From: a phage
NCBI GenBank assembly: GCA_019326865.1
Contig: GCA_019326865.1_4101.1
DNA length: 64,000 nt
Direction: 5' to 3' (one strand)
Of the stretch, positions 20,035-23,606 are shown one piece after another; positions within the stretch are counted from its first letter, which is position 1, and each line of letters begins with the position of its first letter. A program made the translations under genes and the position numbers. Below the pieces are notes generated by a model that saw only the letters and a program-made list of their open reading frames with translations, was not told the DNA's origin and did no database searches.

Positions 20035-20808
20035 ATGAAAGTTGATTATTTTAAACCAATTAATATTGGTTTCATTGAGGAATTTTGGGATGATTTGGAC
20101 ATGGATATGATTGTTCGCCATCAAAAGCTTCCAGACGATTTCATTAAGAAGCATTTTGATAAAATGAACCCTAACATGTTGGCTCGTTATCAAACTATGT
20201 CAATTGATTTCTTAAAAGAAAAGTGGGAATGGTTCGATAAGAACGTTCTGGCAACATATGTTGTCATGCCACTGGAACTCATTAAAGAAAAGTGGGATGA
20301 TTTTAAAGATAACTGTCTTGGAACAGTTGCAAAATACCAAAAAATGTCATTGGATTTTATACAAGAAAAATGGGATGACTTTGTAGAGTTTAAAGATGGT
20401 GTAATGTCAGAAATCTCTCGTTACCAAAAATTAACTCTGGATTTCATTCAAGATAAGTGGGAATATATAGATAAGAATTATATTTCTTATTATCAAACTT
20501 TAACTGTTGATTTCATCAAAGATAACTTAACAGAACTGAACATTGCTGCGGTATCTGCATTCCAAATTATTTCTGATGATGTTCGAAATCTTATGGGATT
20601 GGCTGCACCAGCAGCAACCATTACCGGAAACCAAATATTATCTCTAGACCCATGTGTGGATGGTATGGCACGATATAACGCCCATACTCCTGATAACACA
20701 ACAGTACTGACATGGAATGAATTATTACAAAAACACTTGGGTACACAGGACGGAATTCGTGATATCCATTGGTTGTCTTATAAACTAGGACATAACATCA
20801 ATACATAA
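20035..20808 (+). CDS. tandem-repeat protein
   Basis: Five to six ~27-aa repeats with core YQ-x-[ML]-[ST]-[IL]-DF-[IL]-x-[ED]-KW-[DE]; 257 aa. Confidence 0.55.
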   Translation: MKVDYFKPINIGFIEEFWDDLDMDMIVRHQKLPDDFIKKHFDKMNPNMLARYQTMSIDFLKEKWEWFDKNVLATYVVMPLELIKEKWDDFKDNCLGTVAKYQKMSLDFIQEKWDDFVEFKDGVMSEISRYQKLTLDFIQDKWEYIDKNYISYYQTLTVDFIKDNLTELNIAAVSAFQIISDDVRNLMGLAAPAATITGNQILSLDPCVDGMARYNAHTPDNTTVLTWNELLQKHLGTQDGIRDIHWLSYKLGHNINT

Positions 20809-20827
20809 TATATAAGGAAATATATAA

Positions 20828-21952
20828 ATGTCCGTTTTTAAAATTAACGAAAAATCACACTTAGAAAAAAATATGTTTTTTGATGAAAGTGTTGACATTC
20901 AACGATTTGAAAGTGTAAAATATTCAGCACTAGAGAAACTAACTGAACAACAAAAAAGTTTCTTCTGGACCCCAGGAGAAGTTGATGTATCTAAAGATAA
21001 AATTGATTTTGCCAACCTTAATGATTCAGAGAAGCACATTTTTACCTCTAACTTGAAACGTCAAATTCTTCTTGATTCTGTACAAGGTCGTGGTCCAAAC
21101 CTAATGCTACTACCATATGCATCACTACCTGAATTAGAGAACTTTATTGAGACATGGGCATTCTTTGAAGGTGCGATTCATAGTAAATCATATACTCATA
21201 TTATTCGTAACATTTACCCTAATCCATCTGAAGTGTTTGATACTATGTTGGACATTCCAGAAATCACAGATTGTGCGGCTGATGTGTCTAAGTATTATGA
21301 TGAACTGGATGAGCTAGGTACATGGTATAAAGTACTGGGTGAAGGAACTCACAATGTCAATGGTAAAACTATTGTTGTTGATATGTACGAACTTAAAAAG
21401 AAAATGTGGTTGTGTCTGAATAGTATTAACATCCTTGAGGGTGTGCGTTTTTACGCTAGTTTTGCCTGTTCGTGGGCCTACGCCGAAAACAAGCTTATGG
21501 AAGGTAATGCCAAAATTATTCGTCTAATTTGTCGTGATGAAAATTTACACTTAGCGGCAACACAAATGATTCTTCGCCTACTTAAGAAAGAAGATCTAGA
21601 CTTTGCAAAAATTGCAGAAGAGTGTTATGATGAAGTACTGGAAATGTTCATGTCTGCAATCCGTCAAGAAGAAGCTTGGGCAGATTTCCTCTTTAAAGAT
21701 GGTTCAATCATTGGACTAAATGCAGAAATCCTAAAACAATATGTTCGCTGGATTGGTTCTAAGCGTATGTCAGCACTAGGAATTAAATGTCCATATACTG
21801 TATCTAAGAGTAACCCACTACCTTGGACTGAGCATTGGGTTAGTGGTGGTTCAGTACAAGTTGCACCGCAAGAAACTGAAATAAGTTCTTACATCATTGG
21901 TGGTATTGTTAATGATATCCAAGGAGATACATTCACGCCATTCAAACTATAA
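20828..21952 (+). CDS. nrdB: ribonucleoside-diphosphate reductase beta subunit
   Basis: 374 aa, ferritin-like helices, directly downstream of nrdA; uninterrupted. Confidence 0.8.
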   Translation: MSVFKINEKSHLEKNMFFDESVDIQRFESVKYSALEKLTEQQKSFFWTPGEVDVSKDKIDFANLNDSEKHIFTSNLKRQILLDSVQGRGPNLMLLPYASLPELENFIETWAFFEGAIHSKSYTHIIRNIYPNPSEVFDTMLDIPEITDCAADVSKYYDELDELGTWYKVLGEGTHNVNGKTIVVDMYELKKKMWLCLNSINILEGVRFYASFACSWAYAENKLMEGNAKIIRLICRDENLHLAATQMILRLLKKEDLDFAKIAEECYDEVLEMFMSAIRQEEAWADFLFKDGSIIGLNAEILKQYVRWIGSKRMSALGIKCPYTVSKSNPLPWTEHWVSGGSVQVAPQETEISSYIIGGIVNDIQGDTFTPFKL

Positions 21953-21962
21953 ATTAAAACTA

Positions 21963-21990
21963 AAAAGGGATTCATAGAATCCCTTTTCTT
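21963..21990 (+). terminator. rho-independent terminator
   Basis: aaagggattc-ata-gaatcccttt hairpin plus T-tract. Confidence 0.7.
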
Positions 21991-22002
21991 ATGGGTATTA
22001 TA

Positions 22003-22170
22003 TATGAAAGATATTTTTACAATAGATGCAAACGTTATATATGATTTTTATCTTACTGGTGGTGTGAAGGTAACGGGTACAGTGATTGATGTTTGTGATA
22101 ATGGTATAATCTTAAGTGATGGAACTAGAGTTGTCCAAACACACATCATTATGTTTGTTCCACATGTATG
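22003..22170 (+). CDS. small Sm/Hfq-like protein (55 aa)
   Basis: Not in ORF track (<60 aa). Sm1-like YDFYLTGGVKVTG and Sm2-like VQTHIIMFVP, Hfq-like spacing. No clear RBS. Confidence 0.35.
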
Positions 22171-22198
22171 ATTTTTTTGGAACAAAACAGAATAAATG

Positions 22199-22207
22199 TG
22201 CTATAAT
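22199..22207 (+). promoter_or_regulatory. extended -10 promoter element (TGcTATAAT)
   Basis: About 28 nt upstream of start at 22236. Confidence 0.4.
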
Positions 22208-22223
22208 GAATTTTGTAAAATAA

Positions 22224-23606
<1,383 letters not shown>

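Follow-up and report, generated by a model that had tools for sequence, protein, structure and literature searches.

The locus

A 64,000-nucleotide (nt) stretch of phage DNA (NCBI GenBank assembly GCA_019326865.1, contig GCA_019326865.1_4101.1), termed the window in its full length, contains a small open reading frame (ORF) between nrdB, the gene for the ribonucleotide reductase (RNR) small subunit, and a promoter-like site that serves a gene of 77 amino acids (aa). The ORF starts with ATG and encodes a 55 aa product, MKDIFTIDANVIYDFYLTGGVKVTGTVIDVCDNGIILSDGTRVVQTHIIMFVPHV. It is situated on the plus strand at positions 22004–22171 with its stop codon and 22004–22168 without it. A reading of the sequence alone (the sequence-only reading) had found this ORF but placed it at 22003–22170, one base too low, and had proposed a resemblance to Hfq and other Sm-like proteins. 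It is reported here that the ORF is, by its pattern of conservation, a gene of the RaK2-like jumbo phages, and that its product is predicted to have the barrel fold of Hfq while the RNA-contact residues of Hfq lack conservation in the family.

The region is 95% identical to that of UE-S1, an Escherichia phage, and its identity to further Asteriusvirus jumbo phages, 121Q and PBECO4 among them, is about 90%; the window is an Asteriusvirus of the 121Q/PBECO4/UE-S1 type. The features of the locus are:

20828–21952, plus strand: nrdB, RNR small subunit, a 374 aa ORF with an RNR beta subunit label in all relatives
21963–21987, plus strand: terminator-type hairpin 3′ of nrdB, with an 11-bp stem and a 3-nt loop, followed by the U-rich UUUUCUUAU; minimum free energy −13 kcal/mol, z −2.1
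21994–21996, plus strand: GGG, a weak Shine-Dalgarno remnant at −10 to −8, 7 nt before the ATG; the UE-S1 record annotates a ribosome-binding site here
22004–22171, plus strand: the 55 aa protein-coding gene, a member of PHROG 17251, predicted to encode an Hfq-like small beta-barrel
22040–22114, plus strand: codons 13–37, predicted strands β1–β3, the Sm1-like region YDFYLTGGVKVTGTVIDVCDNGIIL, aligned by profiles to Hfq residues 22–45
22127–22162, plus strand: codons 42–53, predicted β4, 3-10 turn and β5, RVVQTHIIMFVP; positional equivalent of Hfq Sm2 MVYKHAISTVVP, with the YKH signature absent
22178–22207, plus strand: promoter-like site TGGAACA-N17-TGcTATAAT (extended −10), six nt past the ORF stop; it serves the downstream 77 aa gene and delimits the small cistron on its 3′ side

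The ORF begins 51 nt after the nrdB stop (21952) and 16 nt after the end of the hairpin stem. A counterpart of the hairpin is present at the equivalent place in 14 of 14 relatives and is annotated as a terminator in UE-S1 and Munch; a separate terminator/promoter scan of the window lists it on the minus strand. The sequence-only reading noted no obvious Shine-Dalgarno sequence. This is partly correct: the window has GGG only, but six examined relatives (BF, fHe-Yen9-04, Munch, Hallingskeid, EJP2 and RaK2) have GGAG, GAGG or AGG at the same position. Similarly, the ORF had been described as unannotated, which applies to RaK2, K64-1 (GenBank), slurp01 and phAPEC6, but not to most relatives, where the gene is annotated, e.g. 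as a “hypothetical protein” in UE-S1 (UE-S1_020) and as a “membrane protein” in 121Q (gp34, YP_009101628).

Conservation of the open reading frame

Shuffled versions of the window, which has a GC content of 33%, contain about 31 ATG-started ORFs of at least 55 aa each. Thus the length of the ORF is uninformative by itself, and it is conservation that exceeds chance. A tblastn search matched the ORF in 71 phage records, with identities from 100% down to about 33%. These comprise Asteriusvirus, Alcyoneusvirus (RaK2), Eneladusvirus (BF, fHe-Yen9), Mimasvirus (GAP32, CBB, XbC2), Munch-like Salmonella phages, and others. All of the relatives examined keep the frame open. Compared with UE-S1, the window ORF has six synonymous and no non-synonymous changes, and compared with 121Q, seven and none; all are at third codon positions. 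The more distant Asteriusvirus relatives CMSTMSU, Turkey5 and A4 give ratios of non-synonymous to synonymous substitution (dN/dS) of 0.09–0.36.

The gene order is nrdA, a variable insert, nrdB, the hairpin, the small ORF, the promoter-like site, the 77 aa gene, a virion protein of about 130 aa, and a MazG-like pyrophosphohydrolase. It is kept with minor variations in 14 relatives as well as in the two metagenomic members that diverge most; a separate ~130 aa gene is missing from Hallingskeid and EJP2.

In view of the retention in the same slot in 71 records, the synonymous-only changes between close relatives and the low dN/dS values, it is nearly certain that the ORF is a real, conserved protein-coding gene of the RaK2-like jumbo phages, and its translation is supported by this evolutionary evidence. 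Literature searches found no expression data for the ORF (RNA-seq, proteomics or ribosome profiling).

The protein displays a full-length match to PHROG 17251 (E-value = 1.1e-31; residues 1–55 with profile positions 5–59 of 62), a family carrying the label “membrane protein”. This is the sole label obtained, as scans of Pfam, NCBIfam and PHROG with the window protein and 12 relatives gave no named domain. Family members are small, 49–104 aa, and those found all come from RaK2-like jumbo phages (Asteriusvirus, Alcyoneusvirus, Eneladusvirus, Mimasvirus and relatives). An exhaustive HMMER search with the family profile among 1.8 billion cluster representatives yielded about 25 clusters of small proteins and recovered no cellular Hfq and no bridge to cellular Hfq; long matches to Big_6 and InlB B-repeat surface proteins were discarded as repeat-driven artefacts. 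The conserved positions are F5, Y13, L17, G25, G34, I48 and F/W51, together with a D-N-G turn, and the family motif is roughly DIFTFDP..Y.F.L.GG..I.G.V....DNGI.L......IP.DKI..F.P. Many of the longer members have an acidic C-terminal tail, ...ETPE. All 46 of the 46 members analyzed are acidic, with a net charge of −1 to −7 and a mean isoelectric point (pI) of 4.55; the pI of the E. coli Hfq core is about 9.9.

Predicted structure

The window protein was modelled by AlphaFold2 with an alignment of 42 sequences (predicted local distance difference test score 92.5, predicted template modelling score 0.74). DSSP assigns strands to positions 12–17, 22–31, 34–37, 42–44 and 48–53 of the model, with a 3-10 turn at 45–47. 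The Hfq fold is defined by a five-stranded, strongly bent antiparallel beta-sheet (the Sm barrel), and the predicted structure displays such a sheet. An N-terminal helix is not predicted, either in residues 1–11 of the window protein or in residues 1–14 of a 68 aa relative; this second prediction gave the same strands with disordered termini.

A Foldseek search of the PDB with the model listed 50 matches, and all 50 are Hfq. The template modelling (TM) scores are 0.71–0.80, mostly 0.76–0.77, at an rmsd of about 0.9 Å over 47 columns and about 26% identity; the E-values are modest, about 3e-3. In a fold search of BFVD the only significant match was the family member from CBB, and no viral protein named Hfq was found. 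The model thus describes a compact, five-stranded, strongly bent beta-barrel whose closest structural relatives appear to be the core of bacterial Hfq. The fold that the sequence-only reading had guessed is therefore the one predicted, and an Hfq-like barrel fold of the window protein is considered highly probable.

Sequence relationship to Hfq

Sm1-like and Sm2-like segments at an Hfq-like spacing had been noted from the sequence, and these do align with Hfq β1–β2 (VSIYLVNGIKLQG) and β4–β5 (VYKHAISTVVP), with a spacing of 31 residues compared with 32 in E. coli Hfq. The family was also compared by hhalign with an alignment of eight Hfq sequences, which, like the control barrel sequences below, were entered by hand. 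This gave a probability of 54% and a P value of 1.3e-4 over 31 columns that cover β1–β3. The score of 26.1 was reached by none of 600 column-shuffled controls (mean 9.7, standard deviation 2.1). When 16 single small-barrel sequences were used as controls, Hfq sequences took six of the top seven places, all in the same register, and SmAP, Rof, SH3, KOW, Sso7d, CspA and L24 scored at background. In the reverse direction, E. coli Hfq found two families only among 38,880 PHROGs, phrog_13793 and PHROG 17251, the latter with an E-value of 0.22 in the Sm1 region.

The sequence link to Hfq is thus consistent but weak. Shared ancestry of the family with Hfq/Sm is somewhat favoured, and the family probably derives, very distantly and in reduced form, from Hfq/Sm. 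The gene is already present in databases, but the recognition of PHROG 17251 as a divergent viral Hfq-fold family appears to be new; literature searches found no paper that links RaK2-like phages to Hfq or describes PHROG 17251 as having an Hfq fold.

Hfq features that are missing or altered

In the alignment with E. coli Hfq, D3-I4-F5 of the window protein correspond to D9-P10-F11, Y16 to Y25, G25 to G34, D32 to D40, G34 to F42, V44-Q45-T46-H47-I48 to Y55-K56-H57-A58-I59, and P53 to P64. The YKH signature of Hfq Sm2 is replaced by V-Q-T in the window protein and by P-T-D in most of the family; family residues at the equivalents of Y55, K56, H57 and A58 are P/V, T/Q, D/A/S and K/H, respectively. 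The equivalent of F42, the aromatic residue of the proximal uridine pocket, is an invariant Gly34. Thus both the YKH signature and the proximal-pocket aromatic residue are absent. At the equivalent of the distal residue Y25, tyrosine is found in only six of 46 members (V in 17, T in 8, H in 5, and others).

The N-terminal helix of Hfq carries Q8 and the rim arginines R16, R17 and R19. The rim arginines have no counterparts in the phage protein. Its N-terminal segment, compared with the Hfq helix, lacks three residues, and its β3–β4 hairpin is likewise shorter by three residues than that of Hfq. Among the other properties that define Hfq, there is no match to a curated model, no predicted N-terminal helix, no Sm2/proximal pocket, and neither a distal A-R-N site nor a basic rim. 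The motifs of the Sm/LSm proteins (PF01423; Sm1 ‘G..D..MN’, Sm2 ‘RGD’) are not found either, as there is no Pfam LSM match, hhalign gives background scores with three SmAP sequences, and only the Asn before β3 is common. At the level of sequence, the proximal, distal and rim RNA-contact residues of Hfq lack conservation in the family.

Proposed role and expression

The loss of the RNA-contact residues, together with the acidic character of the family, makes a role as a general matchmaker of small RNAs (sRNAs) and mRNAs unlikely. The interpretation preferred here is a distant Hfq-type barrel in which the helix is absent and the hairpin shortened, with disordered acidic tails added in the longer relatives. 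Such a small acidic barrel would bind a protein partner or would occupy a nucleic-acid-binding surface as a decoy, rather than act as a canonical RNA chaperone; a probability of about 0.55 is assigned to this role. The barrel may form a ring by way of its free β4/β5 edges, for which the odds are about even.

There are precedents for protein contacts of this type. The Sm-fold protein Rof blocks the RNA site of Rho by binding to it (PMC11018626), and Hfq of Synechocystis binds PilB1 (PMC4390875). For E. coli Hfq the partner is the neck hexamer of T4 gp14, on which it forms a transient second genome gate (PMC12929587).

No convincing promoter was found between nrdB and the ORF; a consensus scan gave 25 sites, compared with 21 in shuffled sequences. 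One candidate at the nrdB stop, TATAAATT, was set aside, as it overlaps conserved coding sequence. With no such promoter and with the hairpin 16 nt upstream, the small ORF would be expressed by read-through of the nrdB terminator as part of the nrdA-nrdB transcript, below the level of nrdB and together with the DNA-precursor genes.

Several points weigh against the proposed interpretation. The fold is a structure predicted for the monomer, and what is said here of expression, oligomeric state and ligand is a proposal. The conserved gene order carries little functional weight, since these genomes are collinear overall. In sequence, the similarity to Hfq reaches no curated threshold: there is no Hfq or LSM match in Pfam or NCBIfam for the window protein and 12 relatives, even at E ≤ 10, and family profiles searched against PDB sequences give Hfq at E-values of 0.56–1.4, beside the Edc3 LSm domain, IF1 and BirA, and all of these are non-significant. 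The OB-fold protein IF1 also intrudes among the top control barrels, and the Hfq and control sequences of that comparison are the ones entered by hand. In addition, an acidic charge is compatible with RNA binding. It is seen in several archaeal Sm proteins, which nevertheless bind U-rich RNA by way of pocket residues, and N33 and K/H47 of the phage family are situated in Sm-type pocket loops.

Alternative interpretations

A serious alternative, although a doubtful one, is that the protein is a convergent, generic SH3-like small barrel, i.e. a monomeric adaptor or stabilising domain unrelated to Hfq by descent. The likeness to Hfq would then come from the limited number of ways to build a 50-residue barrel with tight loops.

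The sequence-only reading had suggested a phage Hfq-like protein that modulates host sRNA regulation or phage mRNA stability. Stated in full, this would be a functional, hexameric RNA chaperone that acts on host or phage sRNAs and mRNAs, either rewiring regulation or stabilising phage transcripts. The Sm fold is overwhelmingly associated with RNA, the best structural matches are Hfq, the Sm1 region displays sequence similarity, and N33 and K/H47 lie in the two loops from which the nucleotide pocket of Sm proteins is built. However, the residues of Hfq that contact RNA are all unconserved, i.e. proximal Q8, F42, Y55, K56 and H57, distal Y25, and R16, R17 and R19 of the rim. The family is uniformly acidic (46/46), the predicted structures lack an N-terminal helix, and neither Hfq nor LSM models give a match. 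The conserved D-N-G is a favoured tight beta-turn, and its conservation may be structural. This role is thus unlikely and the suggestion is not upheld.

A more speculative form of the ring proposal is that RaK2-like phages carry a helix-less acidic Hfq-fold ring that is a surrogate or an antagonist of host Hfq. As a surrogate, the ring would take over the structural job that is assigned to host Hfq in T4, that of a transient second genome gate on a gp14-type neck. As an antagonist, it would occupy the partners of Hfq or co-assemble with nascent Hfq subunits and so disable host riboregulation in infection. Either version is improbable.

In a related interpretation the protein is a morphogenetic helper, a phage substitute for host Hfq that would cap a gp14-type neck transiently, as the second genome gate does in T4, until the tail joins. 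T4 uses the positively charged face of Hfq against an acidic surface of gp14 (PMC12929587), whereas the phage protein is acidic. The gene lies in a nucleotide-metabolism block behind nrdB and not behind a late promoter, K22 and T41 are unconserved across the family, and no homologues of the T4 neck proteins gp13, gp14 or gp15 were found in the window. Such a helper is very improbable.

The annotation as a small membrane protein, which is carried by 121Q, PBECO4, CBB, GAP32, BF and PHROG 17251, is scarcely credible, as the Kyte-Doolittle hydropathy over 19 residues peaks at 1.13 (family mean 1.07), less than the usual cut-off of 1.6, so that no transmembrane segment is detectable by this measure in the window protein; in addition, the hydrophobic residues alternate as in beta-strands, and AlphaFold2 gives a soluble all-beta barrel. 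A YfaE-like ferredoxin role, considered in view of the position behind nrdB, was rejected, as the single Cys is unconserved. Finally, a chance ORF or non-coding element in the nrdB 3′ region, for which the frequency of similar ORFs in shuffled windows and the weak Shine-Dalgarno site might argue, is effectively refuted by the open frame in all relatives examined, the 71 tblastn matches, the third-position changes and a dN/dS well below 1.

Neighbouring genes

The downstream promoter-like site has a TATAAT-type −10 element in all 14 relatives and a TGAAAC-like upstream element in most. A “divergent RpoD-like” TGAAACG/TATA promoter has been described in the DNA-synthesis region of phage CBB (PMC5259590), and the site at 22178–22207 resembles it.

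The 77 aa protein (22236–22469, plus strand) is acidic in its N-terminal half, ends in a very basic C-terminal tail and matches PHROG 16437 (unknown function). As its gene is invariably found 3′ of the Hfq-fold gene, it may be a candidate nucleic-acid-binding partner. In UE-S1 (record L001, positions 2665–2970, compared with window positions 22164–22469) the downstream gene is called as 101 aa, with a start codon (ATG) that overlaps the small ORF at its end. This extended frame is closed in the window by a TAA at 22221–22223, and the window gene starts at 22236 behind GGAG. The 101 aa call looks over-extended; the T-run of UE-S1 has one extra T.

Between nrdA and nrdB the window has a 257 aa ORF (20035–20808, plus strand) with about five internal repeats of ~30 aa (YQxxSxDFIxEKW...). 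A match to PHROG 3532 (unknown function) was obtained, but none in Pfam. The ORF is present in the window, UE-S1, XbC2 and CBB and is absent in 121Q, RaK2, A4, BF, Munch and Turkey5; the same gap holds an ‘endonuclease’ in GAP32 and a 232 aa ORF in EJP2. The nrdA-nrdB gap looks like an insertion hot spot, and is comparable to that of T4, where mobE is situated between nrdA and nrdB. In Yersinia phage fHe-Yen9-04 (record L010, positions 255–2422) nrdB itself is annotated in two pieces (g298 and g300) around a 245 aa ORF (g299). This suggests an interruption by an intron or a homing-endonuclease-type element.

Significance and comparison with known systems

Small-RNA regulation in bacteria has Hfq as its central hub, and work of 2026 showed that T4 recruits this protein as a structural plug in head-neck assembly. 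A conserved Hfq-fold protein in a whole lineage of 350-kb phages, now mislabelled as a “membrane protein”, would be among the first viral Sm-fold families to be singled out. With its barrel kept, every known RNA surface lost and its charge acidic, it would represent a natural test of the uses of the Hfq scaffold beyond RNA chaperoning, whether these are partner binding, plugging by a ring or action as a decoy. The “membrane protein” label on 121Q gp34, GAP32_301, CBB_306 and PHROG 17251 should be corrected.

The closest known system is bacterial Hfq (PF17209; C. crescentus 6GWK, E. coli 1HK9/4PNO). The phage protein differs from it in that the helix, the YKH signature and the rim arginines are absent, F42 is Gly, the β3–β4 hairpin is three residues shorter, the protein is acidic where Hfq is basic, and no Hfq model is matched. 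Cyanobacterial Hfq (Synechocystis Ssr3341, PDB 3HFO), which keeps the N-terminal helix and forms hexamers, is the product of a cellular gene, and no sequence link was found between it and the phage family. Rof/YaeO, the Sm-like Rho inhibitor (PDB 6JIE), gives a lower structural score than Hfq and an hhalign score at background; it has an N-terminal helix and about 85 aa, unlike the 55 aa phage protein with no predicted helix. In the archaeal SmAP and eukaryotic LSm proteins (PF01423) the β3–β4 hairpin is long, and both an N-terminal helix and the ‘RGD’ motif of Sm2 are present; their hhalign scores are at background and there is no Pfam match.

PHROG 13793 (‘unknown function’) is, like PHROG 17251, viral, small and related to Hfq. 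The two differ in how far the relationship extends. PHROG 17251 is matched at an E-value of 0.22 over the Sm1 region, whereas PHROG 13793 is recognisable along the whole Hfq core, with E-values of 0.015 for E. coli Hfq and 1e-5 for B. subtilis Hfq (residues 9–71). Judged by these profile matches, genuine phage-encoded Hfq homologues exist, and they are present but unnamed in the PHROGs.
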